Shown here piece by piece: positions 19,713 to 41,505 of a DNA stretch of 64,000 nt. The stretch's first letter is position 1; each line of letters begins with the position of its first letter. The translations under genes and the position numbers were made by a program. This DNA comes from a plasmid, in sequence record NZ_CP026049.1; one strand, given 5' to 3'. Under the pieces are notes generated by a model. It did no database searches, was not told where the DNA came from, and saw only the letters and a program-made list of their open reading frames with translations.

Positions 19713-20522
19713 TCACATTCCGGGCTTGCCGTACTCCTCTCGTCCCCACTGCAACGCAGTATTAATCAACCTCTCCAGCAGTTGTTGCGCCTGCAGCCCT
19801 TTCTCCGGAAGATAAGCAAAGCTCTCCTCATCCATATAGCAGCACTGGGCCATTTCTAGCTGAACTGCATGAATATGGTTGACGGGATCGCCATAGTGAC
19901 GGGTGATATATCCGCCTTTAAAGCGGCCATTGAGTATCCGGCTATACTGCGGGAACGCACTGCAGCTTGCCAGCAGCGCCTGGCTGAGCTGCGTCGAACA
20001 GCTGGCGCCGTCCGCCGTACCAAAGTTCAGATCCGGCAGGCGCCCTTCAAACAAGCGCGGCACCACGGATTTGATCGAGTGTGCATCCCACAACAGCGCA
20101 TAGCCAAATTTCTCACGCAGGCGTGCCAGTTCAGCGGCAAGCGCCTGGTGATAAGGCTGCCAGACCTGTTTTAGGATCGCGTCCTTCGCCGCCGCGTCAG
20201 GCGCACCGCCCGGCACGAACAGGGCTTCGCCGTCAAAAAAGATATCGGTAAACAGCCCGGTTGTCGCCGTGCTGTAAAGCGGTTTATCATCCGCCGGGCG
20301 ATTGATATCCACCACATAGCGGGAATAGCGGGCGCATAACGTGCTGGCCCCCATGTCCGCGATGGTCTTATAGAGCAAGGGAACATGCCAGTCGGTATCT
20401 TCCAGACGCTTCGCCCTCGGCGTGAGTCCCTGGTCGACTTCGGGGGTTAATAACGTTCCCGGATGGGGCATACTGACCAGCAGGGGCAGGTTCCCCTGCC
20501 GCAAATCAAACGCCTTAATCAC
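19713..20522 (-). CDS. hutG: N-formylglutamate amidohydrolase (formylglutamate deformylase)
   Basis: The gene is 269 aa, in the FGase family. It overlaps the hutI stop and sits in a hut operon context. Confidence 0.85.
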
Positions 20523-21723
20523 AATAAACCTCCTTACCTTGATAAATCACCTGTTTCGAAAGGGAGCCTCCCAGCCAGTAGCTTAGCTCCGCCGGATGAG
20601 CGATATCCCACGCCACGAAGCTGGCCTCTTTTCCGGCTTCCAGAGAACCGCAAACTGTATCCAGCCCCAGCGCCTTCGCGCCGTTAAGCGTCACGCCAGC
20701 CAACGCCTCTTCCGGCGTCATGCGGAATAGCGTACAGGCCATATTCATCATCAGACGCAGGGACAACACCGGCGAGGTGCCGGGATTTAAATCGCTGGCG
20801 AGGGCAATCGGCACCCTGTACTGACGCAGCAGATCCAGCGGCGGTAGCTGTTTCTCACGCAGGAAGTAATAGGCGCCCGGCAGCAGCACCGCCACCGTCC
20901 CATGGCGTGCCATTACGGCGACATCTTCTTCGCACAAATATTCCAGATGATCCGCCGACAGCGCATGGTAGCGAGCGGCCAACGCCGCCCCATGCTGTAG
21001 CGTTAGCTGTTCAGCATGGAGCTTCACTGGCAACCCCAGTTCCCGGGCTTTCTGAAAGACCCGCTCCACTTGCGAGGGCGAAAATGCCAGGTGTTCGCAG
21101 AACGCATCCACCGCATCCACCAGCCCTTCCTGATGCAGTTCCGGCAGCAGTCGTTCGCAAATATAGTCAATCCAGGCATCCGCCCGCTCCTGATACTCGA
21201 CGGGCACCGCATGGGCCGCCAGGCAGGTACTGCGCACGGTCAGCGGCACTATGTCGCCTAAACGGCGGATCACCCGCAGCATTTTACGTTCGTTAGCCAG
21301 ATCCAGGCCGTAGCCGGATTTGATCTCCAGCGCCGTTACGCCGTCCCGGCACAGCTCCCGGATACGCTGCCGCGCGCTCTCCAGCAACTGGCTTTCGCTG
21401 GCCTGTCGCGTGGCGTTGACTGTACTGGCGATCCCACCGCCGCCGGCCGCGATCTCCGCATAGCTCGCCCCGTTGAGACGCATTTCAAATTCCCGGGCCC
21501 GGTCGCCGCCAAACACTGCGTGGCTATGACAATCCACCAGTCCCGGCGTGACCACCCTGCCCTGCAAATCCACCTGCTGCGCAACGGGCAAGTCCGGCAT
21601 TTCTGCCCGGTTCCCGACCCATAACAGCACTGCGCCGTCGGTCAGCATCGCGCCATCGTTAAGCAACTGATAATGCCCTGCGGCCATGGTGGCGATCCGG
21701 CAGTGGTGCCAAAGGGTATACAT
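20515..21723 (-). CDS. hutI: imidazolonepropionase
   Basis: The gene is 402 aa. It has the metal-dependent amidohydrolase signature …[11 protein letters not shown]… and typical HutI length. Confidence 0.9.
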
Positions 21724-21734
21724 GACGCTCTCCT

Positions 21735-23126
21735 TTAACGACTGATGGCGGCGACAGCCGCCGCGGACGGCGCTTTGCGCAGGACATAGTAGAGCCCCGC
21801 CGGAAGCGCCAGCCCAATGAGCCAGGAGATATCGATACCGCCCAGCATCTTCACGAATGGGCCGGAATAGAATCCACTATCAATAAACGGCGTCTGTACC
21901 GCCACTCCAACGAGATAAACCCCGAGCCCCGTCACATTCCACGCCCGATATTTCCCGTTCGGATCGTTCAGCGCCTCCATGTCTATCGCCTGATGGTTGA
22001 AAAAATAGTAATCCACCAGGTTAATCGCGCTCCACGGTGTAAAGAAAGTCAACAGGAACAACAGGAAGGATTTAAACGCCGACAGGAAAGAGTGTTGCCC
22101 GATAATCGCGATAGCGGTCGCCAGGGTAATAATCATCGCCAACACCAGCAGACGTACCGACTGGCTTACGCGCACTCGCTGCTTCCCGCAGCTGTACACC
22201 GTCGCCAGGCACATCAGGCTGCCGTAGGCATTCAGGGTATTGATCGTCAGTTTACCAAACGCGATGCTCAGATATAACAGCGTGGCAATCGCGCCGGTGC
22301 CGCCCAGGCCGACGATATAGTCCACCTCATGACCGACCAGTTTTCCCTGAGAGAGAGCGGCAGCCAGCACCCCGACGGTCATGGCGATTTGCGCGCCAAT
22401 CACCGAACCGCTCCCGACGGCGAAAAAGACCTTCCCGGGAGAGGTGCTGCGCGGCAGATAGCGGGAATAATCGGCAACATAGGGGCCAAAGGTGATCTGC
22501 CAGGAAGCCGCAAGGCCGGTGGCGGTTAAAAACGTACTCCAGCTAAAGGGTCGGATACTCAGCAGGTCGCCAATAGCCGGAAAGGCACTGATTTTCCACA
22601 GCAGGTAGATAAACGCGATAATCCCCACCAGGCTTGCCAGCTTACCCAACAGGTGGATCAACCGATAGCCGACGTAGGCGATAACCAGCGTGGCGGCAGC
22701 AAAAAGCAGAATGCCGCTGGTTTCCGTAGTATGGAAAACCGCTGAGATCGCCTGGCCGGACAGCACCGCCCCGGTGGCGATAAAGCCAAGGTACATCAGG
22801 CAGACCAGCAGAATCGGCAGGCAGGCGCCGTAGACGCCGAACTGTACCCGGCTGCTGATCATCTGTGGTATCCCCAGCTGCGGCCCTTGCGCGGCATGCA
22901 ATGCCATCACAATCCCACCGGCAATCTGCCCCAGCATAAGACCGGCCAGCGACCAGAAAACATCCCCGCCGAATACAATCGTTAATGCGCCAGTGACCAT
23001 GGCGGTAATTTGCAGGTTAGCCCCCAGCCACAGGGTGAACTGGCTAAAAATGCTACCGTGGCGTTCACCGTCAGGGATGGGTTCAATAGAACGTGTTTCG
23101 ATGTATGTTGTGTTGTTATTATTCAT
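21735..23126 (-). CDS. NCS1-family permease embedded in the hut operon (HutT-like urocanate/histidine transporter candidate)
   Basis: It is a 12-TM NCS1 permease (…[19 protein letters not shown]…). The start was moved to MNNNNTT, which has better spacing after the hutU stop. Confidence 0.8.
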
Positions 23127-23178
23127 GGCTGCACTCCGGTGAGGCGAAGGGGATACATTGCCCCCTTCGCCGGAGAAA

Positions 23179-24855
23179 TTAATCCGCAATCATTGGCAGG
23201 TTAAGTCCTTGCTCTCTGGCGCATTCAATCGCGATGTCATAACCCGCATCCGCATGGCGCATCACACCGGTGGCCGGATCGTTGCTCAGCACCCGGGCAA
23301 TACGTTCCGCCGCTGCATCGCTGCCGTCGCAGACAATGACGACGCCGGAGTGCTGGGAGAAGCCCATCCCTACGCCGCCGCCATGGTGCAGGGAAACCCA
23401 GGTCGCGCCACTGGCGGTATTCAGCAGCGCGTTCAGCAATGGCCAGTCGGATACCGCGTCGGAGCCGTCCTGCATCGCTTCCGTTTCGCGGTTAGGGCTG
23501 GCAACGGAGCCGGAGTCAAGATGATCGCGGCCGATCACGATTGGCGCCGACAGCTCGCCGCTGCGGACCATTTCGTTAAACGCCAGGCCCAGACGGGCGC
23601 GCTGCCCCAAGCCGACCCAGCAGATGCGGGCCGGCAGCCCCTGGAAGCTGATGCGCTCTCTGGCCATATCCAGCCAGTGGTGGAGGTGTTCGTCGTCGGG
23701 GATCAGCTCTTTAACTTTCGCGTCGGTGCGGTAGATATCCTGCGGATCGCCGGAAAGCGCCGCCCAGCGGAATGGGCCAATACCCCGGCAAAACAGCGGA
23801 CGAATATAGGCGGGAACAAAGCCTGGGAAGTCAAAAGCGTTTTCCACCCCCATCTCTTTCGCCATCTGGCGGATGTTGTTGCCGTAATCGAAGGTGGGAA
23901 TCTCCTGCTGCTGGAAGGCGAGCATGGCTTTAACGTGTTCGGCCATTGAGGCTTTCGCCGCGTGGATCGTCTCCACCGGGTGGGACTGCGCGCGTGCGCG
24001 GTAGTCTTCCCAGCTCATGCCCAGCGGCAGATAACCGTTGAGGGGATCGTGTGCGCTGGTCTGGTCGGTCACCATGTCCGGGCGCACGCCGCGTCTTACC
24101 AGCTCCGGTAAAATTTCCGCCGCGTTGCCATGCAGCGCGATGGATACCGCTTCTCCTTTTGCGGTATAGCGGGCAATGCGGGTCAGGGCGTCATCCAGGT
24201 CGCTCGCCTGCTCATCGACATAGCCGGTACGCAGACGGAAGTCGATACGCGACTGCTGGCATTCAATATTCAGCGAACAGGCTCCCGCCAGGGTTGCGGC
24301 CAGCGGCTGGGCGCCGCCCATCCCCCCCAGACCCGCAGTCAGCACCCAGCGTCCGCGCAGGCTACCGTTATAGTGCTGGCGCCCGGCTTCCACAAACGTT
24401 TCGTAAGTGCCCTGAACAATGCCCTGGCTTCCGATGTAGATCCATGAGCCGGCCGTCATTTGCCCGTACATCGCCAGACCTTTTGCATCAAGCTCGTTGA
24501 AGTGCTCCCAGTTTGCCCAGTGCGGCACGAGGTTCGAGTTGGCGATCAGCACCCGCGGGGCATTGTCGTGGGTTTTGAAAACCCCCACCGGTTTACCGGA
24601 CTGGATCAGCAGCGTTTCATCATCATTGAGCTGCTTCAGGGTCTCCACGATCTTGTCGTAGCATTCCCAGTTGCGGGCCGCCCGGCCAATACCGCCGTAC
24701 ACCACCAGCTCTTTTGGATTTTCGGCGACATCGGGATCCAGGTTGTTCATCAGCATGCGCAGCGGCGCCTCTGTGAACCAACTTTTTGCGTTCAGCTTAG
24801 TGCCTCGCGGGGCTCTGATTTCAATATCGCGAAAACGGGTTGCTTGTTTACTCAT
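23179..24855 (-). CDS. hutU: urocanate hydratase (urocanase)
   Basis: The gene is 558 aa, collinear with enterobacterial HutU. Confidence 0.95.
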
Positions 24856-24924
24856 GCGCTTTACCTTCTTATCTGTAACCTGTCATATGCTACTTAATCG
24901 TAAATTTTATTTTTTACGGCTTAG

Positions 24925-26360: not shown

Positions 26361-26431
26361 GATTCGATTGGCTATGGGCGCAGAGCGATTAAATCTTCAA
26401 CCTGTTTCTCTGGCACAGCTATCTCGCAATT

Positions 26432-27000: not shown

Positions 27001-27571
27001 AATTATGCTTCAGGACTCGCTTAGTATACGCTGTATCCCCCAGATCCGCGGTGCGCCAACGGCGCTGGCCGTTGCGATTGCCCAGTTGAGCACCGCTTCC
27101 CAGGCCCGTTGCGACCGAATAACCAATACGCATCTCAGCGGGCTGCCGGCCTTTCTTATCTCGCCGGATTCGGGGTACTCCGGGATGATGATCCCACCCT
27201 ACGTCGCCGCTGCGCTGGCGGGCGATAACCGCAGTCTGGCCGGCCCGGTCAGTATCCACACGGTGTCCACCTGCGCCGGTCAGGAAGATCATGTCAGCAT
27301 GTGGAGGTTGCCGCCGCACGCAAAGCGCTTCAGGCGGTAGAAACGCCGTGGACATCGTCGCCATCGAACTGCTGTGCGCCTGTCAGGCGCTGAAGTTCCA
27401 TCGCCCGCTGCGTGCCGCCGTGGGCAGCGAGGCGACGCTGGAGAGAGTGCGTCAGGCGTGCCGTTTCGGGATAAAGATACGCTGCTCTACCCCGATATAC
27501 ATGCGCTACGCGCCCTGATTCATCAGGGCGAACTCAGCGCGATGCTGCAGGCATTGTGCGAAGAGGAGTGA
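27001..27571 (+). pseudogene. hutH: histidine ammonia-lyase 3' fragment, frameshifted
   Basis: …LSGLPAFL…SGMMIPPYVAAALAGDNRSLAGPVSIHTVSTCAGQEDHVSM matches HutH residues ~300-380. The C-terminal end (…ALRALIHQGELSAM…) is in other frames (ORFs 27291-27518, 27374-27571). The N-terminal half is absent. Confidence 0.7.
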
Positions 27572-27604
27572 CAACAGGCGCCGCAGATGGAGCCTGCAGC
27601 GTGA

Positions 27605-28162
27605 TTAAAGGGGAACCAGCGTGATGCGGGCCAGACGCACGCCCGGAGAGTCCTGGATAACCAGCGCCACCGCTTCATCCACCAGCAGGCTGTCGTAATG
27701 TTCCAGTAAATAGCGTTGGTCGCCGACGCTCACCCGCAACGCGGGCCCGGCATTAAACAATAACCGCAGTCCGCCCTGATACGACCACGTTCCCGCCCCG
27801 CACCAGCTTACCGTCGCCCGCAGAGCGGCTTCCCGGTAAATCACATTAAAATCCAGCAGCGGGCCGCCGACAATCTCACAGGATACGCCGCTCGCGCCGT
27901 TGAACCCCAGCGCCTGGAAAGGCGCAATCAATGCGCTGCGCTGCCCATCAATTGTCAGGTACATCCCGCCGCCTTCCAGCACGCTGATATTGCGCAGGTA
28001 GCCGGGAAATGTGGAGAACGGACCAGGCTGGCGAATGGTCGCCAGGGATATACGCCATTCATATTCTCCCGATTCCGGATAGCGGGCCACTTCGCGCGTC
28101 ACGCCCAGGCCGTTTTTCCAGGGCATTTCCGTATACAACCCGGCAGGGAGCAGACGGATCAT
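27605..28162 (-). CDS. hutD: HutD (hut operon cupin-like protein)
   Basis: The gene is 185 aa from MIRLLPAGLYTEMPWKNGLG… and HutD-like. Its ATG overlaps the hutC stop (ATGA). Confidence 0.8.
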   Translation of the reverse strand: MIRLLPAGLYTEMPWKNGLGVTREVARYPESGEYEWRISLATIRQPGPFSTFPGYLRNISVLEGGGMYLTIDGQRSALIAPFQALGFNGASGVSCEIVGGPLLDFNVIYREAALRATVSWCGAGTWSYQGGLRLLFNAGPALRVSVGDQRYLLEHYDSLLVDEAVALVIQDSPGVRLARITLVPL

Positions 28163-28920
28163 TTGCGCATGCTCCCTTCCAGACGGTAACGCGGACCGGG
28201 ATAGACCAGGCGCACGCTGGTGACGATTTTCTTCTCCTGACGGCCGGTCCACGTCCGACGATTGACCAGCAGACAAGGCGTATGTTCATCAATTTCCAGG
28301 TAAACACACTCGGCCCGCGTGACGTTGACCGCTTCAATAACGTGTTCGCCTTCAACAATCGGCGCAATTGAGGAGAGATAGGCGTTCGGCGTGATACGTG
28401 TAAAATCCTGCTGCAGGTAGTCAGGCACAACCTGCATATTCACCAGTCGGTCTTCCAGCATAACCGGTACGCCATTTTCATAATGGCAAATCAGCGAATG
28501 GTACAGACCGCAACCCTGCTGCATGCCAAAGCTGAACGCCTGCTGGGCATCGGCTTCGATTTCCGTCAGTCTGAAAACTCTGGCGTGGTGGCGATGGCCA
28601 CGGCTGACGATTTCGTCAGCGATATTGTTAATGTCCAGCAGCGCCGACTGACCGCGAATTTCGGCGACAAAAGTACCAACCCCCTGCATTCGCACCAGCA
28701 AGCCCTCCGCGGTCAGTTCTCGCAACGCGCGGTTAATCGTCATCCTGCTATAACCAAACAGCGTAACCAGTTCGCTTTCAGAGGGAACACGGTAATTCGC
28801 TGGCCATGCCCCGCTGTGGATCTTGGTTTTGATCATGACCTTAACCCTTTCATAAAAGGGGGCGGGATGTTCAAGTATCTCATCCACGGAATCCGAATTT
28901 GACAAGTCATTACGCGCCAT
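28159..28920 (-). CDS. hutC: GntR-family histidine utilisation repressor
   Basis: The gene is 253 aa. It has a GntR HTH (…LVTLFGYSRMTINRALRELTAEGLL…) and a UTRA effector domain. Confidence 0.9.
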   Translation of the reverse strand: MARNDLSNSDSVDEILEHPAPFYERVKVMIKTKIHSGAWPANYRVPSESELVTLFGYSRMTINRALRELTAEGLLVRMQGVGTFVAEIRGQSALLDINNIADEIVSRGHRHHARVFRLTEIEADAQQAFSFGMQQGCGLYHSLICHYENGVPVMLEDRLVNMQVVPDYLQQDFTRITPNAYLSSIAPIVEGEHVIEAVNVTRAECVYLEIDEHTPCLLVNRRTWTGRQEKKIVTSVRLVYPGPRYRLEGSMRK

Positions 28921-28968
28921 TAACTATTCCTCATATGCTGACGTTGTCAGTTTACTCTATGACCTGTT

Positions 28969-28992
28969 AGATGTATATATATGTACAAGTAT
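28969..28992. promoter_or_regulatory. putative HutC operator in the hutC-hutF divergent intergenic region
   Basis: agatgtatatatatgtacaagtat is a near-palindrome resembling the Pseudomonas HutC box (TTGTATATACAA-like). Confidence 0.4.
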
Positions 28993-29018
28993 ATTAGCAC
29001 TAATAATAAGGTGGTAAA

Positions 29019-30386
29019 ATGGCAGTCTGGTTGGCAGAAAAAGCGCTTTTGTCTGATGGCTGGGCAAATAACGTCGGCATAACCGTGTCCGAAGAAGGCA
29101 TCATAACCGCGCTGGAAAAGAACGCAGCGCCGAGTCCGCATGCGACGCGCATCAAAGGGGTCGTCGTGCCGGGTATGCCAAACCTGCACTCCCATGCCTT
29201 CCAGCGGGCGATGGCCGGGTTAACGGAGGTCGCGGGAAACCCGTCGGATAGCTTCTGGACCTGGCGGGATCTGATGTACAGGCTGGTAGATAAAATTACG
29301 CCAGAACAGCTGGAAACCATCGCCAGCTATCTGTACATCGAAATGCTCAAAGCCGGGTACACCTCGGTCGCCGAATTCCACTATCTGCATCACAGCAGCA
29401 GCGGCGCGCCTTATGAAGAGCGGACGGAATTAGCGCTGCGTATCGCCAGAGCAGCGAAACATACCGGCATCGGCCTGACGCTGCTGCCTGTCCTGTACAG
29501 TTACGCCGGGTTTGGCGCGCAGCCGCCCTCCGTTGGACAGCGCCGCTTTATCAACGATAGCGACAGCTACCTGACAATGTACGAGTCGCTCACATCGCGG
29601 CTGGCCGGTGAGCCAATGCAGCGTACCGGTCTGTGCTTCCACTCATTACGGGCCGTTACGCCGGAGCAGATTGGCGCCATTCTGGCATGCCATCCTGGCC
29701 AGCAGCCGATTCATATTCATATTGCTGAACAGCAAAAAGAGGTGGATGACTGCCTGGCCTGGTCCGGCGAGCGCCCGGTGGAGTGGCTGTACAACCATCT
29801 CCCCGTGGATTCGCGCTGGTGCCTGATCCACGCCACTCATCTGACGCCTCAGGAAACGATGAAGATCGCCACATCCGGTGCGGTGGCCGGCCTGTGCCTG
29901 ACCACCGAAGCCAATCTCGGCGATGGCATATTCCCCGGCCCACAATATCTGGAGAATAACGGCGTCTGGGGAATTGGTTCCGACAGCCACATTAGCGTCA
30001 GCGTCAGCGAGGATTTACGCTGGTTCGAATACGGGCAGCGCCTGATAGCCCAGCGCCGCAACCGGCTCATCGTCCCAGGCGAGCCTCACGTTGGCAACGT
30101 GCTGTATCAAGGGGCACTACGAGGCGGCGCCAGAGCGCTGGGCCAAAACATTGGCCAGCTAAGCGTAGGATATCGGGCCGATCTGGTCGTATTGGATAGC
30201 CAGAACCCCTTTATCGCCAGCGCAGAAGACCAGATGCTGCTCAACCGTTGGATCTTCGCCTGTTCATCTAATCCCATTACCGCGGTGATGACTGGCGGAC
30301 GCTGGGTGATTGAGGATGGGCATCACCATCAAGAAGAATCTGTCTCACAGGCATTTATTCAGGTAATGAAACATCTTGCAGTCTGA
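29019..30386 (+). CDS. hutF: formiminoglutamate deiminase
   Basis: The gene is 455 aa, in the amidohydrolase/HutF family (…MPNLHSHAFQRAMAG…). It is divergent from hutC, as in Pseudomonas hut loci. Confidence 0.85.
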   Translation: MAVWLAEKALLSDGWANNVGITVSEEGIITALEKNAAPSPHATRIKGVVVPGMPNLHSHAFQRAMAGLTEVAGNPSDSFWTWRDLMYRLVDKITPEQLETIASYLYIEMLKAGYTSVAEFHYLHHSSSGAPYEERTELALRIARAAKHTGIGLTLLPVLYSYAGFGAQPPSVGQRRFINDSDSYLTMYESLTSRLAGEPMQRTGLCFHSLRAVTPEQIGAILACHPGQQPIHIHIAEQQKEVDDCLAWSGERPVEWLYNHLPVDSRWCLIHATHLTPQETMKIATSGAVAGLCLTTEANLGDGIFPGPQYLENNGVWGIGSDSHISVSVSEDLRWFEYGQRLIAQRRNRLIVPGEPHVGNVLYQGALRGGARALGQNIGQLSVGYRADLVVLDSQNPFIASAEDQMLLNRWIFACSSNPITAVMTGGRWVIEDGHHHQEESVSQAFIQVMKHLAV

Positions 30387-30395
30387 CATCGAAAA

Positions 30396-30428
30396 AACCG
30401 GTTCAACGACGGTGAACCGGTTTTGTTT
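30396..30428 (+). terminator. rho-independent terminator after hutF
   Basis: A perfect 10-bp stem (aaccggttca / tgaaccggtt) with loop acgacg is followed by tttgtttct. Confidence 0.65.
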
Positions 30429-30593
30429 CTGAATGAAGTTTAAATAATTCAAATGATTTTACTAACGGGATCATGTCGGTCGTGAAGCATCGCCCCTCTT
30501 GCTTGGCTTCACTCCTTGCAATTCAGGAGGTGAATACCTTTTAATGCAGAATTACAAGTTTCTGGTTATCTCATGAATCAATATGCTATTTAG

Positions 30594-31355
30594 GGTAATG
30601 ACTCCAAATTATTGATAGTGTTTTATGTTCAGATAATGCCCGATGACTTTGTCATGCAACTCCACCGATTTTGAGAACGACAGCGACTTCCGTCCCAGCC
30701 TTGCCAGATGCTGCCTCAGATTCAGGTTATGCCGCTCATTTCGCTGCGTATATCGCTTTCTGATAACGTGCAGTTTTCCCTTCAGGCGGGATTCATACAG
30801 TGGCCAGCCATCCGTCATCCATATCACCCAAAGGGTGACAGCAGGCTCATAAGACGCTCCAGCGTCGCTATAGTGCGTTCACCGAATACGTGCGCAACAA
30901 CCGTCTTCCGGAGCCTGTCATACGCGTAAAACAGCCAGCGCTGCCGCGATTTAGCCCCGACGTAGCCCCACTGTTCGTCCATTTCCGCGCAGACGATGAC
31001 GTCACTGCCCGGCTGTATGCGCGAGGTTACCGACTGCAGCCTGAGTTTTTAAGTGACGTAAAATCGTGTTGAGGCCAACGCCCATAATGCGGGCGGTTGC
31101 CCGGCATCCAACACCATTCATGGCCATATCAATGATTTTCTGGTGCGTACCGGGTTGAGAGGCGGTGTAAGTGAACTGTAGCTGCCATGTTTTACGGCAG
31201 TGAGAGCAGAGATAGCGCTGATGTTCGGCAGTGCTTTTGCCGTTCGCACCACCCCGTCAGTAGCTGAACAGGAGGGACAGCTGATAAAAACAGAAGCCAC
31301 TGGAGCACCTCAAAAACACCATCATACGCTTAATCAGTAAGTTGGCAGCATCACC
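30594..31355 (-). mobile_element. IS1 copy (~762 bp), degenerate, with insA/insB frames broken
   Basis: The IS1 ends are ggtaatgactccaa at 30594 and ggcagcatcacc at 31344-31355. InsB-like (30609-30827) and InsA-like (31118-31300, [19 protein letters not shown]…) fragments carry frameshifts. Confidence 0.85.
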
Positions 31356-32105
31356 ATGAATAGCTAATGATTACCTAGTGGATAACTTCATTGCTCAATT
31401 GTGGTGCAAATGTTAGGTGTTTATCCCTGTAATGGGGCATGTCATGCTTACATTTTATCAACAATTGATTTCTTTGAGGATACTTTACAAAACTCCGCTC
31501 TGGTAAAACCAGCAGAGATAAAAATAACTGCTTTAAATTCAACTTTTTATGTTTTAGTGCGCAATCATGGCATGGCTAATGCAGGTTGTATATGCAGGAC
31601 TGTACATCAAATCTTTCTTACAGCTTATATTTTATGAGAAAAATCCAACAACCAAAGTAAAGGGGCGGTTATTACGATGAGTACCTTCAATAACAGAATT
31701 AAACATGATGGCTCTGACTTTGTGGTGGTTGATAACCAGAACCCGAGACTGCCGAGTACTTCAGGCGGAGGAAAAAATACATCACGATCGAAGATGATAC
31801 TACGTCATGCTTAATTAATATCTGAGAGTAGTTAATTTCTGAGGTATTCGAATCAATGATATGAGGTTTATCCCATGAGGAGTGGTGGCGTATGTCGTCA
31901 TAACACGTTTATCGTCAAGGTATCGGCACCCTAATTTATCGGGGCACTGCAAAAAAAACGGGTATTAAAGACTGAATCGCAGAAAGGCAGAAGTTTAAGT
32001 CTTCATGTTGATGACAGCAGGCGGCCTATAGCAGAACGAGTAAATGTTGCTAGCAGGCAGCGTACCGTTCAGATTATATGCTTGTAATTTTCGAAGGATT
32101 CATCT

Positions 32106-33512
32106 ATGAAACATTCCACTAGCACTGTAAAGCACACGGTTATAGAAAGACGGTCAATCGATTATGTACCTGATAATGAGCGCTTCGGCAGCGCTATGGG
32201 ACAGTTTACATTATGGCTAGGGGTTAACCTTAATATTACCGCTATTGTGACCGGCGCGTTGGCCGTTGTATTAGGCGGCGATGTTTTCTGGTCATTAATC
32301 GGTTTATTTATAGGTCAGATATTAGGCAGTATCATAATGGGGCTACAGGCCATACAAGGGCCAGCTACAGGACTGCCACAAATGATTCGAAGCCGTATGC
32401 AATTTGGTGTTTATGGCGCGGTCATCCCTCTTTTACTGGTAAGTTTTTTATATATAGGGTTCTCTGCTGGAGGCACATTGCTGGCAGGACAGGCCGTGGC
32501 AAAAATTTTGAATGCCGCAGAATGGCAGGGTATCGTTTTATTCGGTGTCATCACGATCTTGGTTGCCACCTTAGGCTACCGCGCCATACATTCTTTAGCA
32601 CGGATCGCGAGTGTGGTCGGCATCATTGCATTTATTTACATGTTCGTTGCATTATTAGCTGGCCATAATATTAGCAGTCTTCTAGAACAGAGAAAGTTTA
32701 TTCCCAACCAGTTTATCCTTTCCATTTCACTGGCGGCGGCCTGGCAAATTGCTTATGGCCCCTATGTCGGAGATTATTCACGTTACCTCCCTACGGATAC
32801 ATCAAAACTGAAAGTGTTCTTTGCCGCCGCCTCTGGAACAACACTGGGCTCTCAGGCAGCCATGACATTTGGTGTTTTTTCCGCCGCTATTGCCGGAGTG
32901 GCATTTACCGGACATGAAGTAGAATTCGTTGTAAATCTGGGGGCATCCGGTCTCGTCGCATCTTTGCTTTACTTTGTCGTAGGCTTCGGCAAAATAACCA
33001 TGATGACATTGAATGCGTATAGCAGTTATATGTCGAGTGCGACGCTTGTGAATGGTTTCAGAGGAAAAGCAACCGTCTCTGTCGGTCATCGATTTATTTA
33101 TGTATCAGCCATGATTTTGTTAGCTGTTTCCATTGCGTTATGGGGCTCGGGAAGCTTCATACACGCTTTTTCTTCTTTTTTATTATTTCTACTGACCTTT
33201 ATTTCTCCCTGGAGTGCAATTTGTCTGGCTGACTGGCAGTGGGGGCATCGTTCTAAATGCGATCTGCAGGCATTAAACGATCCACAAGGAATATATGGCC
33301 GCTGGAACTGGAGTGTAATTTCCATTTACTTCATTGGCTTATTAATGGAACTTCCTTTTGTTTCCAGCAGTATTTACACTGGTCCGATTGCAGGCTTGTT
33401 AGATGGCGCAGATATCTCTTGGTTAGTTGGCCTGATTGGCACCGGCATAGTGTATTACATTTACAGCAGAATATTGCCCCCCGCTTCTATGAAAATACAG
33501 GCTACTGATTAA
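32106..33512 (+). CDS. NCS1-family transporter (purine-cytosine/hydantoin permease-like), 468 aa
   Basis: It is a paralogue of the hut-embedded NCS1 permease (…[31 protein letters not shown]…). Confidence 0.85.
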   Translation: MKHSTSTVKHTVIERRSIDYVPDNERFGSAMGQFTLWLGVNLNITAIVTGALAVVLGGDVFWSLIGLFIGQILGSIIMGLQAIQGPATGLPQMIRSRMQFGVYGAVIPLLLVSFLYIGFSAGGTLLAGQAVAKILNAAEWQGIVLFGVITILVATLGYRAIHSLARIASVVGIIAFIYMFVALLAGHNISSLLEQRKFIPNQFILSISLAAAWQIAYGPYVGDYSRYLPTDTSKLKVFFAAASGTTLGSQAAMTFGVFSAAIAGVAFTGHEVEFVVNLGASGLVASLLYFVVGFGKITMMTLNAYSSYMSSATLVNGFRGKATVSVGHRFIYVSAMILLAVSIALWGSGSFIHAFSSFLLFLLTFISPWSAICLADWQWGHRSKCDLQALNDPQGIYGRWNWSVISIYFIGLLMELPFVSSSIYTGPIAGLLDGADISWLVGLIGTGIVYYIYSRILPPASMKIQATD

Positions 33513-33548
33513 CAGTAAAAATAATAATCCCAAATAAAGGATCCATAC

Positions 33549-35138
33549 ATGAAATATATTGTTGACCCATTTTCCGAAAAAACGTCGCTTAATACGCCAT
33601 ACAGTTTACTGCGTCATTATGCAGAAAAATGGCCTGATAAAGAAGCTCTGGTATTCGATGCTGGTAATCAACGAATGACCTTCAGAGGTTGGCTTGACAG
33701 TGTCGACAAGTTGGCGCTAGAGCTAAGTCGTCGTGGTGTAAAAGCGGGTGACCCGGTGGCTCTGTTGGCAGAAAATCGTATTGAGTGGCCAGTTGCCCAG
33801 ATTGCAATTTCGGCCTTAGGTGCGATACTGGTGCCTGTTAATACTCATTTCCGTGATAATGATCTACGCCACGTTCTCGATCACAGCCAAGTAGTTGCCA
33901 TCTTGCTGTCCGAACGTTTTCGCTCCAGCGAATATTTAGCCATGGTACGAGCGATTCATCCTCAACTCCCTAGCCTAAGAGACATTATTAACTTCGATGA
34001 TATGGAATATGAAGCGGTAATGCGCCAACCCGTTTTGGCTGAACTGACGGAGTGGGTATGGTCCCCCAGAGAGTTGGCTAGTATCCAATATACTTCTGGT
34101 ACTACTGGACGGCCTAAAGGCGCAGAACTCTGTATGGAAGGGATAATGATGAATGCCTGGGGCACCGTGCAGCGGCTGGAAGTGACGGAGATGGATCGCT
34201 GGACATCCATTATTCCGCTCTTCCACTGTGCAGGTTGCATCATGAATATTCTGGCATGCCTGACAGCTGGTGCGACATATTTGGGTATGCGTGCTTTCGA
34301 CGCCGGACAAATGCTTTCGCTGATAGAACGGGAGCGCTGTACAGTTCTGACGGGAGTCCCCACGTCCTACTTAGCGATGTTAGAGCATCCGGACAGACCA
34401 TATTTCGATCTCTCGTCTTTGCGTACCGGAACCTGCGGTGGTGCAGACTGCGATCCGAGACTTCTGGAACAGTGCGCGCGGGCGTTTCCTATTAATGGGT
34501 TGGTGCAGGTTTACGGGCAGACGGAAGCCAGCACACTGATAGCGTTAGATTACTGGCAAAGTCCCCAGCGCTTTGCCACCGCTGGCTTGCCCTTACCTGG
34601 AGTTGAAGTGCAGGTCTGCGATCCGAATACCGGAGTGGTACTCCCCCACGGGGAAATCGGCCAGCTACAGGTTCGTGGGCCAATGGTCATGTTGGGATAT
34701 CATCGAGATGCGGAGGAAACCGCTCGCTGCATCGATCCTCAAGGCTGGATGAATACGGGCGATCTCGGTCGGCTAAACATCGATGGTAGGGTCGAACTGG
34801 TAGGAGGACGCCTGCGCGATATGATCATTCGCGGTGGTGAAAATATCTATCCTGTAGAGATAGAAAATCTGCTGCGTGAGCATCCGTCGATCACTGAAGT
34901 TGCAGTCTTCGCTCTACCCGATAAATTTTACGGCGAAGTGGTAGCCGCCGCTATTGAGTCCACCAAGCCGTTATCCAAAGATGAAATAAGAAAAGCCTGT
35001 GTTGGTAAAATAGCTGGTTTTAAACATCCTGCTCGGGTCTTTACCATCGTAGAATGGCCGATGACGTCAAGCGGGAAGATCCTCAAGCGCATGTTGAAAA
35101 CCGCAGCCCTTGATGGGCAACTGAAGGAGCTTTTATGA
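33549..35138 (+). CDS. AMP-dependent acyl-CoA synthetase/ligase (529 aa)
   Basis: The AMP-binding box IQYTSGTTGRPKG and C-terminal …GDLGRL…GRLRDMIIRGGENIYP… are present. Confidence 0.9.
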   Translation: MKYIVDPFSEKTSLNTPYSLLRHYAEKWPDKEALVFDAGNQRMTFRGWLDSVDKLALELSRRGVKAGDPVALLAENRIEWPVAQIAISALGAILVPVNTHFRDNDLRHVLDHSQVVAILLSERFRSSEYLAMVRAIHPQLPSLRDIINFDDMEYEAVMRQPVLAELTEWVWSPRELASIQYTSGTTGRPKGAELCMEGIMMNAWGTVQRLEVTEMDRWTSIIPLFHCAGCIMNILACLTAGATYLGMRAFDAGQMLSLIERERCTVLTGVPTSYLAMLEHPDRPYFDLSSLRTGTCGGADCDPRLLEQCARAFPINGLVQVYGQTEASTLIALDYWQSPQRFATAGLPLPGVEVQVCDPNTGVVLPHGEIGQLQVRGPMVMLGYHRDAEETARCIDPQGWMNTGDLGRLNIDGRVELVGGRLRDMIIRGGENIYPVEIENLLREHPSITEVAVFALPDKFYGEVVAAAIESTKPLSKDEIRKACVGKIAGFKHPARVFTIVEWPMTSSGKILKRMLKTAALDGQLKELL

Positions 35139-36127
35139 AAATGAGTGTGACAGGCTATCCACATACATGCGTCTTCACCCCTGGGCCGCACCAAACAGCA
35201 GCTGCAATTGGCAACACGGGTGTGAAAGTGGTGTCGACACCAGCGTTGATCGCTCTATTGGAGGAGACCAGTGCCGATGCTGTAGCAAAAGACTTACCGT
35301 CCGGCTGGGTGAGCGTGGGAACCCATGTCGACGTACATCATCATAAACCCGCCTGGCCTTATCAGGAGGTTCGCTGTACGGCGACGTTAATTAGCGCAGA
35401 CGAGAAAAGGTTGCAGTTTTTCGTACAGGCGCATCAAGCGGGAGCATTGATCATGAGCGGTAAGCATGAACGTGCTCTAGCGCCACTCAGCCGTTTTGAA
35501 CGTGCTGATGGTAAACTGCCAGAGGGAGCTCCGCTGGAGTTTTTCTTTGATTTTCACAGCCCTTGGTGCTACCTCGCCTTCCCCCGTCTAAGAGAAATTG
35601 CCGCTGCGTACGGAAGAATGATAGTACTACGTCCCTTCCATCTGGCTAATTTGATTGACCGCATAGGTGGTCGTAGACCGTTGGATGCCTCGCCAGCGTT
35701 TGTCAACTGGTTCAAACAAGATATGCAGGACTGGGCGCGCATTCGCCGGCTGCCACTAAGTTATCATCCTAAGTTCCCGTTGCGGCCTTCACGTGCGCTG
35801 CGAGCTACCCTGTATGCAGTTGAAGAGGGGCTGGGAGAAGCATTCGCCTTCAAGGTGATGCAGGCGTATTGGTCACAAAGTCTGGATATTAGCGATGTTG
35901 CCATCTTAGGCGACTTAGCAACTTCAGTAGGGCTAGATAAAAATGCGTGCATCTCCTCCATCGGCGATGAAGCCCGGAAGCTAGCCATAGTCTCGAACAC
36001 AGATGAAGCTATTGCTCGCGGGGTATTTGGTGCACCAGCAGTGTTTGCCGATGGCAAACTGTTCTGGGGAAATGACCGCCTTGATATGATGGACACTTGG
36101 CTGGCATCTGCGGGAGAGCGCTGCTGA
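35135..36127 (+). CDS. hotdog-fold thioesterase fused to a DsbA-like 2-hydroxychromene-2-carboxylate (HCCA) isomerase-family domain (330 aa)
   Basis: The N-terminal ~120 aa resemble FlK/4HBT-type thioesterases. The C-terminal ~200 aa carry FHSPWCY…, the kappa-GST/HCCA-isomerase motif. The ATG overlaps the ligase stop (ATGA), giving translational coupling. Confidence 0.8.
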   Translation: MKMSVTGYPHTCVFTPGPHQTAAAIGNTGVKVVSTPALIALLEETSADAVAKDLPSGWVSVGTHVDVHHHKPAWPYQEVRCTATLISADEKRLQFFVQAHQAGALIMSGKHERALAPLSRFERADGKLPEGAPLEFFFDFHSPWCYLAFPRLREIAAAYGRMIVLRPFHLANLIDRIGGRRPLDASPAFVNWFKQDMQDWARIRRLPLSYHPKFPLRPSRALRATLYAVEEGLGEAFAFKVMQAYWSQSLDISDVAILGDLATSVGLDKNACISSIGDEARKLAIVSNTDEAIARGVFGAPAVFADGKLFWGNDRLDMMDTWLASAGERC

Positions 36128-36698
36128 GCCACCGACGGAGAGAAGTAGGCTAACGCTTCCTTCTCCCCACTATAGACTCAGACCAGCATAAAAGATGGGA
36201 ATTCCTATGTTATACCCGAAAAGGAGATAAGGTCGGTAAACCACCCTGCTGTCAAACTCCGTTAGGTCAAACCATTTGCCGAAAATACTACCGCAGTAAT
36301 AATTGTGGTAAATGCCGACCTAGGCAGCAGGTGTGGTGGTCGTGTTGCCCATAAAAAACCTCTGTGGTCAATGTCGTCTGGGGTCCGGCTTAAACTGTGC
36401 CGACACAAGTAACGGGAGCACAACGGAGGATGCAAGGGCGTCACCGAAGCTGCTGCAGGGTAAACAGCAGGAGGAGGCTGGGCGGTTTGACGGCGAAAAA
36501 TGAACCTGAAAACGATGGGAAGATGGCGGTTAGCGCCTTTGAAATAAACTGTGGCCGGGTTAAGTTGACAGCGTTTATGCTCCCCTTGCATCAGTCGTGG
36601 CCCGTCTATAGTAGCGGCACGTCGGTCAACGTTAAACGGGATGAATGTGGCGCGTAGCAACATCGTTGTTATTGCGTCGTTGACATTCACAAAATCCT

Positions 36699-37103
36699 GG
36701 GTAGTGCTACCAACTTATTGATTTTGTGTTAGATGGTGTTTTTGAGGTGTTTTATGGCTTCCATTTACGTGGGATCGCCATCTTGTGCTGTGACTGAAGG
36801 CGTAGACCGTAACGGCAAAAGTACTGCCGGTCATCAGCATTATCTCTGCAGGCAGTGCCGTAAGCCATGGATACTCACTTTCACCTATACAACCTTACAG
36901 TGCAGTACACAACAGAGGAAAATCATCGATATTACTATAAATGGCTCTGGATGCCGTGCCAGTCCACACATTATCGGCATTGGTCTGAACACCATTTCCC
37001 GTCGTTTAAAAAACTCAGTCCCCAGTCAGTAACCTCGCGGATAAAGGCGGGCTGGGGTGTTATTGTCTGCGTAAAAAGGGAAGAGCAGAGGGGCTACGTC
37101 GGG
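36699..37103 (+). mobile_element. divergent IS1-family element, left part only (insA-like 36754-37032)
   Basis: An IRL-like gggtagtgctaccaacttattgatt is at 36699. InsA-like [39 protein letters not shown]… is ~55% like IS1 InsA. The element is cut by the IS2-like insertion. Confidence 0.7.
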
Positions 37104-38336
37104 TGGGTTGGCTCCTATATTTCCATACACTTTTTATCACTTAACCCATTACTGGTTTGCCGCATCAGGTATTCCCGTGGCGAACGATACCACGGTGCAC
37201 TATGCGGATGCCATTCGTTATAATGCTCGAAGGATTCTGCAAGGTTCTCTACCGCTGTTAACCCATCGGGTTTCGGCATGATACTGATGTAGTCGCGTTT
37301 CATCGTTTTCACGAAGCTCTCTGCCATCCCGTTGCTTTCGGGCTACGTAACGCCGTATGTCCAGGCTCTAGTCCTACCATTCTGGCGAACTGACGCGTCA
37401 GGTGAGACCGGTAGGCCGAACCGTTATTCGTCAGCCACTCAACGGGGGATGACGGCAGGCTGCTGCCGAAGCGTCGTTCCACCGCACCCAGCATCACGCC
37501 CTGTACGGTTTCGCTGTCATATCCACCATTACTTTCCACCCTGTACAGTGCTTCACGATCGCAGCAGTCCAGGGCGAACGTGACCTGTAGTTTTTCGCCA
37601 TTATCACAGCTGAACCCGAAGCCGTCAGAGCACCACCGCTGGTTACTTTCTCCAACGGCCTCTTTCCCTGTATGCGCCTGCTTCGATGGCGATATTGCCG
37701 GTTTACGCTCAAGCAGCAGCGCATTCTGACGCATGATGAGGTATTTTGGCATAGATCACCGCCATGTCGTCAGTTTCTGATTGTCTGCGTAGCAGTGCCC
37801 ATACCCCACGATAACCATAGGTGGGCAGAGCGCCTATAACAGTATGGATATGGGGCATGGCATGCAGTTGCGCACGTGAGATCCGGAGGCAACGACTGAC
37901 GAGGCTTATTCGCCATCCTCCGGCAACAAGGGCACGTGCAGTATCCACTTTTTTGTCGGCCATATTCAACGGCTTCTTTCAGCAGCTTGTTTCCCATTGT
38001 CATCTTGCCCAGCAGGCGCTCCAGTTCTTTAATTTGCTTCATCGCAGAGTCTAGCTCCGACGCGGGCATAACCTGTTGACCAGCGGCATCGGCGGTGAGG
38101 CTGCCTTCCTGATACTGCTTGCGCCACAGGAAGAGCTGACTAGCAGCGACACCGGCATGCCTGGATCAAAGCTCTGCTGAACAATGGCGATTTTTTCCTG
38201 AACGCTGCGCCGTCTGCCCTTGTCTGGTCCTAAAACATCAATTATCCGGATTCCAGCGACTAGACTAAAAATGAGTATTAATACTATCAATAACTTAAGT
38301 GATACCAACTGTCTGAAGATTCCAGGGGCCAGTCTA
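37104..38336 (-). mobile_element. IS2-like (IS3 family) element, degenerate (frameshifted orfA/orfB, ~1.24 kb)
   Basis: The ends resemble the IS2 IRR (tgggttggctcctatatttcca…cacttaacccattac at 37104-) and IRL (rc of ggggccagtcta at 38325-38336). OrfA pieces (…[12 protein letters not shown]…LKEAVEYG…) and OrfB pieces are in several frames. Confidence 0.75.
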
Positions 38337-38366
38337 TTCATGTACGAGAATCCGGTTAAGCCATAA

Positions 38367-39332
38367 TCAACTCCGATTGACTTCTGAATTATTACTCACG
38401 TAGCCGCCATGATTGTGCTGATGGTAATGTAACGTAAACATAACCCCACCAATTAACAGCGTAATGGCGGCACTTTCCTGTAGATCCGGAATGCGCTGTG
38501 AATAGATAAAACCATATAGCAGCGCGAAAAGGGTTTCAAAAACCACCATCTGCCCTGTCAGTGATACCGGAAGACGCCGGGAACAGAGATTCCACGCCAG
38601 ATATCCCAGCCATGAGGAGACCACGGCTAACATCATGTTCGTTATCCAAAAGAGCGTTTGAGTGTTTTCCGGTAACGACAAGTCAACTGCAGAAAACCTG
38701 AATATACTGGCGATGAGCCATAGCAGTACCGAAATACATCCCGTACACAGGCCTATCAGGAGAGACCACTGGTTACTGTTGTAAGGGAGTTTTTTCAGAC
38801 AGCGGGAGTTCTCGACAGCGTAACGGCTCCAGCACAGTAATGCAGCGAAGGCACAAAGGATCCCTAGTATCTGCCGTTTTCCTTCTGTAACTTGGTGCGA
38901 GGATGTTTGTATCGCATGCAGATTAATCAGCACCACACCAGCAATGATAGCCGTCATCGGCAGCAATAATTGCCTGAAGGGCGGAGCATGCTGGTCCCTG
39001 CGACCAAGCACCGGAACCATCACAGGAATTAAACCTATCACTAAGGATGTCGCGGCAATACCGACCTGCTGTACGGCCACCGCGACGAGCAGAAAATAGA
39101 GGACATTGCTCATCAGCGAAAGACGGATTAGCGTCAGCAGATCGCGATGATGCCATACACGGGCAATGTTGCGCCATTGAGGTATAAGTAATATTGCCGC
39201 CAGTATCCCATAGGTAGCAAAGCGACCGCAGGTTAACAGCAGTGGTGAGATCTCGGGTAGCAGTACCGGTGGCAGGAAGATGAATCCCCAGCATGCGCCA
39301 GCGAGTACGCCAAATGTAATCCCTTGCTTCAT
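38367..39332 (-). CDS. EamA/DMT-superfamily transporter (321 aa)
   Basis: It is a 10-TM protein with two EamA-like halves. Confidence 0.8.
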
Positions 39333-40147
39333 GCTGACTCCTGCAATGCCGTTTCAGGTAATCTAGCCCCCGACTGGCGCTCACTCCACGACGACAAAAA
39401 ATACTGCAGCCGCGGGCTTTTCGGCTGATGGAACAGTTGCGCCGGTGCTCCCTGCTCTTCAATGCAGCCATCGGCAAGAAACAGCACCCGATCGGAGACT
39501 TTAGCGGCAAACCCCATCTCATGGGTCACAATCATCATGGTCATACCATCATCGGCAAGATTGCGGATGACCTTTAGTACCTCCCCGACCAGCTCCGGAT
39601 CAAGCGCTGAAGTCGGTTCATCGAACAGCATAATGGCGGGTTTCATGGTCAATGCCCGGGCGATGGCAACGCGCTGCTGCTGACCACCGGATAACATCGC
39701 GGGCCAGCTATCGGCTTTGTCTGCCAGACCAACCCGTGCCAGTTGCGTTTTCGCTTCGGCGTAGGCTGCTTCACGGGAGACCTTTTTAACCCGCCGCAAC
39801 GGCGTGGCTACGTTATCGAGTACCGTCATATGCGGCCACAGATTAAACTGCTGAAAGACCATACAGACGTCGCGTAAAGCCTGACGGTTTTCCTTGTCGC
39901 TTAAACGCCGGCGTTTTTCCCCGCCGAGAGGTTCATAGCCGACGTTCTCGCCATTCACCACAATGCTGCCGGAGCTATAATCTTCCAAAAAGTTAATACA
40001 GCGTAACAGCGTGGATTTACCCGACCCTGAGCCACCAATCACGCAGATGACTTCTCCGGGAGAAATGCTGACATCGATGCCACGTAGAACATGGTTTTCG
40101 CCATAATGTTTATTGAGGTTGTTAATCTCAATAGCATAATCACGCAT
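39329..40147 (-). CDS. polar amino-acid ABC transporter ATP-binding protein (272 aa)
   Basis: Walker [10 protein letters not shown], signature [15 protein letters not shown] and Walker [12 protein letters not shown] are present. Confidence 0.9.
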
Positions 40148-40151
40148 AGTA

Positions 40152-41482: not shown

Positions 41483-41505
41483 ATTGCCCTCCAGTATCCA
41501 TCAAA

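Follow-up and report, generated by a model that had tools for sequence, protein, structure and literature searches.

HCCA isomerases interconvert a ring-closed cis-enone and a trans-aryl-enone via glutathione addition. A homolog of these enzymes is encoded in the plasmid locus described here, where an NCS1 permease, an AMP-forming coenzyme A (CoA) ligase and a hotdog thioesterase fused to a DsbA-like domain form a three-gene module that is probably an accessory of histidine utilization (Hut). The locus (positions 30594-37103) was analyzed in a stretch of 64,000 nucleotides of sequence record NZ_CP026049.1, which is called the window throughout, and the plasmid is a large IncFIB/IncFII type of the Klebsiella/Raoultella group. 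When we compared the DsbA-like domain with the HCCA isomerase NahD and kappa-class glutathione S-transferases (GSTs; structures 2IMD, 3FZ5, 1R4W), we found the same DsbA-like thioredoxin fold (template modeling (TM) scores of 0.80-0.87), a catalytic serine in a D-x-x-S-P-[YW] motif replacing CxxC, and the cis-Pro and G-x-D-R motifs. In contrast to these relatives, the domain shares its polypeptide with a thioesterase and is paired with a CoA ligase, and its presumed substrate is an enoyl-CoA thioester instead of a free keto-acid. Its context is hut and not naphthalene degradation as for NahD, and an Arg-Arg pair replaces Asn53 of GSTK1.

Cinnamoyl isomerases isomerize double bonds on carrier-bound thioester chains. 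In nonribosomal peptides, assembly of the cinnamoyl moiety depends on these members of the HCCA isomerase/GST-kappa family as key enzymes (PMC12532209). They belong to the same protein family as our domain (cinnamoyl-lipopeptide biosynthesis, IPR014440) and handle an aryl-acrylate-type moiety, but they are actinobacterial and biosynthetic, act on polyenes bound to carrier proteins and carry the motif PRxYFSLRSPYSW, whereas the module is proteobacterial, CoA-based and catabolic. The N-terminal domain resembles the fluoroacetyl-CoA thioesterase FlK (3KX8, 3P2Q) in its hotdog fold and Thr-Glu-His triad; sequence identity to FlK is about 30%, and unlike FlK, the domain is joined to an isomerase domain and has no link to fluoroacetate. 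A sequence of activation, isomerization and release is known from the chiral inversion of 2-arylpropionates such as ibuprofen, which involves an acyl-CoA ligase, an alpha-methylacyl-CoA racemase and a thioesterase. The three steps and the ATP cost are common to that system and our proposal, but there an unrelated racemase epimerizes C-alpha, whereas a GST-kappa-type domain would carry out a geometric isomerization here.

cis-Urocanate is the natural isomer of trans-urocanate, from which it is formed by ultraviolet (UV) light. A bacterial 'cis-urocanic acid isomerase' activity was reportedly described by Hug, Dunkerson and Hunter in 1999. A passage of PMC5988872 cites it as an activity of skin bacteria such as Micrococcus luteus. 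Its net reaction, conversion of cis- to trans-urocanate feeding histidine catabolism, is the one we propose for the module, but it is known as an activity only, and the enzyme of skin bacteria may well be unrelated to the module. In the literature searched, no gene has been assigned to a bacterial cis-urocanate isomerase, and the term occurs only in citations of Hug et al. 1999. According to recent work cited in PMC12471417, urocanase-positive strains account for the cis-urocanate consumption of skin bacteria. The same literature, 8 million papers in extent, contained no match for 'urocanoyl-CoA' or 'urocanate isomerase' and no link of HCCA-isomerase-like or FlK-like proteins to histidine utilization. 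An initial annotation, made by reading the DNA alone, had not recognized the trio as a described pathway, and neither did we: no NCBIfam equivalog was found for permease, ligase or fusion, and the literature searched describes no such pathway. The module is an uncharacterized, widespread variant built from known enzyme families.

Structure and conservation of the module

The module and its immediate flanks comprise the following features.

31396-32105, plus strand: AT-rich upstream region (39% GC), placed inside the conserved 4.74-kb core by sequence comparison
32106-33512, plus strand: NCS1 permease (Transp_cyt_pur; 468 aa; Pfam E 1.7e-47), the proposed substrate importer
33549-35138, plus strand: AMP-forming acyl-CoA ligase, ANL superfamily (529 aa; AMP-binding E 6.9e-88 and AMP-binding_C)
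35135-36127, plus strand: FlK-hotdog::DsbA/kappa-GST fusion (330 aa; Pfam FlK and DSBA)
35192-35479 (aa 20-115), plus strand: FlK-type hotdog thioesterase domain (Pfam E 2.1e-25; T35/E43/H69)
about aa 120-133 of the fusion, plus strand: linker, of low confidence and flexible in the AlphaFold model
35534-36097 (aa 134-321), plus strand: kappa-GST/HCCA-isomerase-like domain (DSBA E 6.6e-39; Ser142 in HSPW, FGAP, GNDR)
36128-36698: spacer of about 570 bp with no recognizable content, common to Klebsiella plasmids and absent in Pantoea

The permease aligns with PF02133 from profile position 1 to 440, the full length of the model, and scores 162.7 bits (cut-off 23.5). It has no named equivalog, and the NCBIfam subfamily models score below their cut-offs. 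For the ligase, Pfam assigned PF00501 (295.5 bits) and PF13193 (47.8 bits), and 130 relatives were found in the PDB at E<1e-20. The closest solved structures are those of feruloyl-CoA synthetase, MenE (o-succinylbenzoate-CoA ligase) and 4-coumarate-CoA ligase. By family membership, the protein is an ANL-superfamily acyl-CoA ligase with predicted CoA-ligase activity. Its open reading frame (ORF) shares 4 bp (ATGA) with that of the fusion. The initial annotation had called an NCS1 permease, an AMP-forming CoA ligase and a translationally coupled thioesterase::DsbA-like fusion, and the ORFs, the Pfam matches and the ATGA overlap bear out these calls.

In the fusion protein, the N-terminal domain scores 89.2 bits with PF22636, and the FlK residues T42/E50/H76 align to T35/E43/H69, of which E43 and H69 are invariant across 76 sequences. 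The C-terminal domain scores 134.1 bits with PF01323. Here, an active-site serine replaces the cysteines of DsbA (D-F-H-S142-P-W), and it is followed by the cis-Pro motif F-G-A-P and by G-N-D-R. Residues S142, P143, F298-G299-P301, G312 and D314 are invariant, and N313 and R315 nearly so. Among solved structures, 3FZ5 (E 2e-27) and NahD 2IMD (E 5e-20) match this domain. The AlphaFold (AF2) model of the fusion has a mean predicted local distance difference test score of 93.9, and Foldseek gave TM scores of 0.87 to HCCA isomerase (2IMD, 3FZ5) and of 0.83-0.89 to FlK, with a root-mean-square deviation of about 1.5 Å. Judged from these similarities, the C-terminal domain is a kappa-GST/HCCA-isomerase homolog that may bind glutathione and may have a thiol-dependent isomerase activity.

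The combination of an FlK-hotdog and a DsbA/kappa-GST domain was present in all of the 120 best homolog clusters (42-63% identity), whose sources are Pseudomonas, Paraburkholderia, Comamonadaceae, Alcaligenaceae and a wide range of Alphaproteobacteria. Since this architecture recurs in more than 120 protein clusters, the fusion is no frameshift artifact, a possibility that the initial annotation had left to be checked. The family search yielded 831 matches at E<=0.001, and the 330-aa fusion itself is identical within a cluster of 118 member sequences and occurs on at least 1000 contigs. In two metagenome-assembled genomes (MAGs; L063 and L065), the thioesterase and DsbA-like parts are adjacent but in different frames, which indicates either separate genes or a frameshift. 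Databases currently label members of the family 'DsbA family protein' or 'HCCA isomerase'.

To survey gene contexts, one genome per species was taken, which gave 67 loci, and about 80 loci were examined in all; contexts in high-GC loci rest on tblastn and precomputed gene calls. Synteny of the trio was found in no fewer than 11 other species, so that the adjacency questioned in the initial annotation recurs elsewhere. The order permease-ligase-fusion was seen in Pantoea septica (97%), Paraburkholderia oxyphila, Caballeronia jiangsuensis and several Pseudomonas species, and in every one of them but Pantoea septica, a divergent LysR gene accompanies the trio. The Pseudomonas proteins are about 72/69/62% identical (permease/ligase/fusion) to those of the window. 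An orthologous ligase (47-98% identity) lies directly upstream of the fusion on the same strand, usually overlapping it, in 30 species. Across Klebsiella, Raoultella and Pantoea plasmids, the three proteins are 97-100% conserved, and all three ORFs are intact in the window. Taken together, these data indicate that permease, ligase and fusion almost certainly constitute a conserved functional module with a 4.74-kb core at 31396-36135.

A distant clade of fusions (40-45% identity), which comes from marine and sponge-symbiont MAGs (L023, L027, L030, L033, L038, L041, L065 and others), is organized in a different way. A PhyH-type dioxygenase gene precedes the fusion, a CoA ligase of 30% identity is encoded on the opposite strand, and some loci add genes for a homocysteine S-methyltransferase, a methyltransferase and an EamA transporter. 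From its gene content, this clade looks like a different, equally uncharacterized CoA-dependent pathway.

Probable link to histidine utilization and proposed reaction

In Alcaligenaceae, Comamonadaceae and several Alphaproteobacteria, the ligase-fusion pair is located inside or beside hut operons. Of the 30 species in which an orthologous ligase adjoins the fusion, nine carry hut genes within 8 kb of the pair; by a rough calculation (7-gene pathway, about 5000 genes), chance alone would give about 2% per genome. The operator consensus of the regulator HutC, TGTA-N2-TACA, is experimentally established (PMC12977541). In Neopusillimonas maritima, hutI-hutG-hutF-hutU is divergent from ligase-fusion, a perfect HutC operator (TTGTATATACAA) lies in the 170-bp gap, and a second operator was found between the adjacent ATP-binding cassette (ABC) transporter and hutC. 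Three Aestuariivirgaceae/Rhizobium-like loci (L059, L061, L067) show a HutC operator followed by a hutF-hutH-ligase-isomerase operon, with gaps of no more than 35 nt in L059, and hutH encodes the 4-methylideneimidazole-5-one (MIO) motif in both called copies (L059, L067). HutC operators are present at L013, L059, L061 and L067, and at L075 and L078, the pair is co-operonic with hutU-D-I-F-G.

Hydrogenophaga taeniospiralis and a Comamonadaceae genome carry the three genes of an NMT1-type ABC transporter, ligase, fusion, hutU, hutD, hutI, hutF and hutG in this order on one strand with gaps of at most 93 nt, and a TetR gene faces this run. hutH is absent from it. Such lig-fus-hut operons without hutH suggest that the substrate requiring ligase and fusion enters the pathway at urocanate. 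In Hydrogenophaga sp. Root209, ligase-fusion-hutC is followed by hutU-hutH, and in Rhodoligotrophos defluvii, an operon of a LIV-type ABC transporter, ligase and fusion lies 1.4 kb from hutC/hutF and hutI-hutH-hutG-hutU-hutD. The constant ligase-fusion pair is combined with three unrelated transporter types (NCS1, NMT1-type ABC, LIV-type ABC), as expected of an uptake-plus-conversion module in which the transporter varies while ligase and fusion stay. In the window, the module permease is 51% identical to the NCS1 permease of the plasmid hut operon (21735-23126) over 445 aa without a single gap. This hut-operon permease occupies the position of hutTu of Pseudomonas, where hutTu is a urocanate transporter next to hutU (PMC8034625). 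From gene context in relatives, we infer that the module converts an imported compound into trans-urocanate, and its assignment to Hut and urocanate as an accessory of the histidine/urocanate pathway is probable. This link and the narrowing of the substrate class are new points beyond the initial annotation.

The initial annotation had suggested CoA-dependent activation, glutathione-dependent isomerization and release of, for example, an aromatic or heterocyclic acid, with hydroxy-aromatic and nucleobase-derived acids as candidate substrates. The general logic is plausible, but these substrates find no support in any of the roughly 80 loci. A catabolic pathway for an acid that is aromatic, hydroxycinnamate-like or derived from a nucleobase, with no relation to histidine and with a coincidental hut neighborhood, would agree with the resemblance of the ligase to feruloyl, 4-coumarate and o-succinylbenzoate ligases and with that of the DsbA-like domain to the HCCA isomerase of the naphthalene pathway. 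It would also fit the Pseudomonas/Paraburkholderia cassette, which stands alone in mobile regions with a LysR regulator, and the IS-mediated hut adjacency of the window (IS, insertion sequence). However, aromatic ring-cleavage, beta-oxidation or nucleobase-catabolic genes are conserved beside the pair in 0 of about 80 loci, chance hardly explains why the pair is embedded in hut loci, with HutC operators, independently in at least five lineages, and the nearest paralog of the module permease in the window is the hut permease. Such a pathway is improbable.

A ligase and a thioesterase form a futile pair unless the thioester is changed in between, and the sole other catalytic unit belongs to an isomerase family; the net reaction would thus be an ATP-driven isomerization of a carboxylic acid. 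Our best explanation, which we put forward tentatively and with somewhat less than even confidence, involves uptake of cis-urocanate, its activation with CoA, a thiol-assisted cis-to-trans isomerization and hydrolysis to trans-urocanate for HutU. In the first step, the NCS1 permease, a close paralog of the hut-operon permease, would import cis-urocanate. The ligase would then form cis-urocanoyl-CoA at the expense of ATP, which would turn the unreactive acrylate into a Michael acceptor. In the third step, the kappa-GST/HCCA-isomerase-like domain would convert cis to trans: a thiol, probably glutathione bound at Ser142, may add to the beta-carbon, the bond may rotate and the thiol may be eliminated. 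Finally, the fused FlK-type thioesterase would hydrolyze trans-urocanoyl-CoA, and trans-urocanate would pass to HutU-HutI-HutF-HutG. Substrate, thiol cofactor and order of the steps are what we infer from gene context and enzyme-family chemistry. That the substrate is specifically cis-urocanate is possible and no firmer than that, and with similar caution, the ligase and the FlK::kappa-GST fusion may be regarded as candidate genes for a cis-urocanate isomerase system that requires ATP and CoA and acts via urocanoyl-CoA.

Several observations weigh against this explanation. The hut adjacency in the window is secondary, as indicated by an IS1 breakpoint, a terminator after hutF and the lack of a convincing HutC operator, and the enterobacterial module has no regulator gene attached (no lysR, hutC or tetR). 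In Pseudomonas, Paraburkholderia and Caballeronia, the trio is found under its own LysR, away from hut and often in integrative or transposon contexts. The distant homologs adjoin PhyH and not hut; the wider family therefore serves more than a single substrate and would act on further CoA esters. An alphaproteobacterial clade (L050-L069) encodes the isomerase-like domain as a separate protein (about 200 aa) directly 3' of the orthologous ligase; an FlK thioesterase is missing within 8 kb of the isomerase in this clade, and release of CoA is unexplained there. In the fusion, the position of GSTK1 Asn53 is occupied by the nearly invariant R180-R181, and glutathione use by the C-terminal domain is therefore not assured.

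The hut context would equally suit a different Hut-linked substrate that yields urocanate or urocanoyl-CoA, with the kappa-GST-like domain working as a thiol-dependent lyase or transferase. Candidate substrates are urocanate to which a thiol (glutathione or cysteine) has been added, ergothioneine-derived thiolurocanate and a beta-substituted imidazolepropionate. Many thiol-dependent eliminations are catalyzed by GST-fold enzymes, and lyases of the ergothionase type lack MIO. In the Aestuariivirgaceae hut operon of L059, a HAL-family paralog without the Ala-Ser-Gly MIO motif (SSVGAADL; 8612-10111) lies directly 3' of the isomerase gene and might indicate that the pathway has a second input other than histidine. 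However, this paralog was seen in one locus only, no desulfurase or other extra enzyme is conserved beside the module, the closest characterized relatives of the domain are isomerases (HCCA isomerase, cinnamoyl isomerases), and the alternative substrates are rarer in nature than cis-urocanate. We consider a substrate of this kind rather unlikely, but it carries more weight than a pathway unrelated to histidine, and the cis-urocanate route remains our preferred reading.

Plasmid surroundings and mobility

To the left of the module, the window contains a Pseudomonas-type hut cluster (hutG-hutI-NCS1 permease-hutU, then hutD-hutC, then hutF), and IS elements lie on both sides of the module.

19713..24855, minus strand: plasmid hut operon (annotation of the collinear pC52_001; all genes translate without stops)
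19713-20522, minus strand: hutG
20515-21723, minus strand: hutI
21735-23126, minus strand: hut-operon NCS1 permease in the HutTu position
23179-24855, minus strand: hutU
26972-27488, plus strand: C-terminal remnant of a HAL-family histidase (tblastn with a MIO-bearing HutH matches residues 332-504 only)
27605-28162, minus strand: hutD (annotation)
28159-28920, minus strand: hutC (Pfam GntR and UTRA)
29019-30386, plus strand: hutF (Pfam HutF_N and Amidohydro_1)
30393-30430, plus strand: hairpin and U-run 3' of hutF, a probable terminator (RNAfold -17.6 kcal/mol, then UUUUGUUU)
30594-31355, minus strand: degenerate IS1 of 762 bp (vs. 768), with the right inverted repeat (IRR) at 30594 and the left inverted repeat (IRL) at 31355 beside the cargo
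36699-37103, plus strand: divergent IS1-family left end with an InsA-like ORF, 405 bp, 74% identity to IS1A, IRL beside the cargo, no outer end
37104 to about 38340 (right limit approximate), minus strand: degenerate IS3-family element (ISEc36/IS2-like), which cuts the IS1-like element at 37103

Because of the probable terminator after hutF, which forms a strong hairpin, the trio is presumably not co-transcribed with hutF. The hut cluster contains no intact hutH. In the related plasmid L072, four ABC-transporter genes and an intact hutH lie between hutU and hutD; the corresponding stretch of the window (24856-27604) has lost the histidase and the ABC transporter. With the histidase lost, the cluster as it stands can use urocanate but not histidine. 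To the right of the module, a DMT transporter and an amino-acid ABC system are encoded. Farther left (880-17605, coordinates from pC52_001), there are lacI-lacZ-lacY, an IncFII repA with its leader peptide, a phospholipase D family gene and a TerB-N/ATPase/DEAD-helicase trio, which might be a defense system. An Rfam scan of 26000-42000 returned a sole match, CRISPR-DR61 at 26816-26852, which is below threshold (28.1 bits vs. a gathering score of 38, E 0.33) and probably due to chance.

The initial annotation gave the IS coordinates and the inward-facing IRLs exactly. It also described the trio as IS-bracketed cargo; IS1-family sequences do lie on both sides, but they are IS debris and not an intact pair. 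The left IS1 is 96.4% identical over its whole length to the intact IS1A copies of a Pantoea plasmid, and its insA is frameshifted, leaving a 60-aa ORF at 31118-31300. Comparison of its 9-bp flanks (GCTATTTAG and ATGAATAGC) gave unrelated sequences and hence no target-site duplication, and none was found around the IS1/IS1-like pair of the window or at the right IS. The left IS1 marks the rearrangement breakpoint at which the module joined the plasmid hut cluster. No plasmid that joins hutF to the module without IS1 was found among 209 records.

Over 7 kb, the window shows 100% identity to plasmids such as pNY1A and pC52_001, and coverage of the region reaches 80% or more in 44 plasmid records. 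Another set of about 120 Klebsiella plasmid records matches the query at 90-95% identity, which is a sequence match only and does not imply presence of the module. The 4.74-kb core occurs in three plasmid settings with different IS neighbors. In the first, that of the window, it lies beside hutF with IS1 in between. In the second, plasmid II of Kp52.145, there are no hut genes nearby, and homology extends from the exact IS1 edge at 31356 to 37857. In the third, that of Pantoea plasmids, an IS5-family fragment is located upstream (seen in L003), and an IS3-family element begins 8 bp past the fusion stop codon. In p174224 of P. piersonii, the whole module arrangement lies between two intact, directly oriented IS1A copies, around which no target-site duplications were found.

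The initial annotation had also raised the possibility that the trio is mobilized as one unit by inverted IS copies, and had proposed that target-site duplications be sought in related plasmids. A currently mobile IS1 composite transposon of 6.5 kb would be in line with the IS1-family sequences that lie on both sides, as they do in Tn9, and are inverted here, and with the occurrence of the core in three plasmid contexts, among them the intact IS1A pair of p174224. However, the left element has both ends but broken ORFs, and the right one is a 405-bp fragment without an outer end. Both IRLs face the cargo and therefore cannot delimit it as a transposon. Unlike in Tn9-type elements, target-site duplications are missing in the window and in p174224, and the limits of the shared sequence vary with the context (31356-37857 in Klebsiella, Kp52.145 plasmid II, vs. 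31396-36135 in Pantoea). In a plasmid of K. quasipneumoniae (L002 8962-10270), a degenerate IS3-family element of 1.3 kb separates IS1 from the module, and it is found directly 5' of the module in Kp52.145 plasmid II (L071 10710-12014). Its absence from the window is consistent with an IS1-adjacent deletion, with insertion in L002 as the alternative. The IS sequences around the module are debris and do not form a working composite transposon, and mobility of the trio as one such unit is highly improbable. Since the core has other IS neighbors in related plasmids, IS-mediated shuffling and not a defined transposon is indicated; judged from these plasmid comparisons, the module in Enterobacterales is cargo shuffled among plasmids by IS activity.

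In the plasmids, no lysR, hutC or tetR gene is attached to the trio, the IS breakpoint lies 750 bp upstream, and a search 5' of the permease found no lysR remnant. A scan for promoter and terminator consensus sequences returned nothing above shuffled expectation, and in Kp52.145 plasmid II (L071 14206-15779), the ligase is frameshifted near residue 180 while permease and fusion are intact. All of this would suit a silent or decaying passenger that has lost its regulator and native promoter and is of no present use. On the other hand, the ORFs of the window are intact, the proteins keep their 97-100% conservation across Klebsiella, Raoultella and Pantoea plasmids, and the 710-bp upstream region is conserved together with the ORFs (96% with Pantoea). 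We regard a silent or decaying state of the module in these plasmids as unlikely.

Several small features were noted upstream of the permease. In the promoter scan, which as a whole did not exceed chance, a promoter-like site at 31342-31371 (TTGGCA, 18-nt spacer, AATGAT) spans the IS1/module junction (31355/31356), 735 nt 5' of the permease. The AT-rich region contains a 45-codon ORF, MSTFNNRIKHDGSDFVVVDNQNPRLPSTSGGGKNTSRSKMILRHA, at 31677-31814, which is preceded by a purine-rich stretch and may encode a small protein or a leader peptide or have no role at all. Two candidate HutC operators were rejected. A weak half-site at 31585-31598 has 3 mismatches and is not statistically meaningful (4 matches in the window vs. 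1.46 expected by chance). Kp52.145 plasmid II and the plasmid of K. quasipneumoniae have a perfect TGTATATACA at a distance of 83 bp to the left of the module; it is not claimed as an operator because it lies at the right edge of the IS3-family element and resembles the terminal repeat of that element.

Biological implications

cis-Urocanate is the main UV photoproduct of the urocanate pool of the skin and a mediator of UV-induced immune suppression. The module is a concrete candidate for the missing gene of a cis-urocanate isomerase, an activity that has been cited since 1999, and this candidate is carried on plasmids of clinical Klebsiella, Raoultella and Pantoea as well as on chromosomes of numerous proteobacteria from soil and water. 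If our proposal is true, proteobacteria with the module, including plasmid-bearing Klebsiella, Raoultella and Pantoea, could consume immunosuppressive cis-urocanate via the ordinary Hut pathway. This would add a new accessory branch to a classic catabolic regulon and a new metabolite, urocanoyl-CoA, and it would give the FlK::DsbA-like fusions, a widespread family, their first physiological role. If the substrate differs, the conserved Hut link would still mark an unrecognized input to that pathway.

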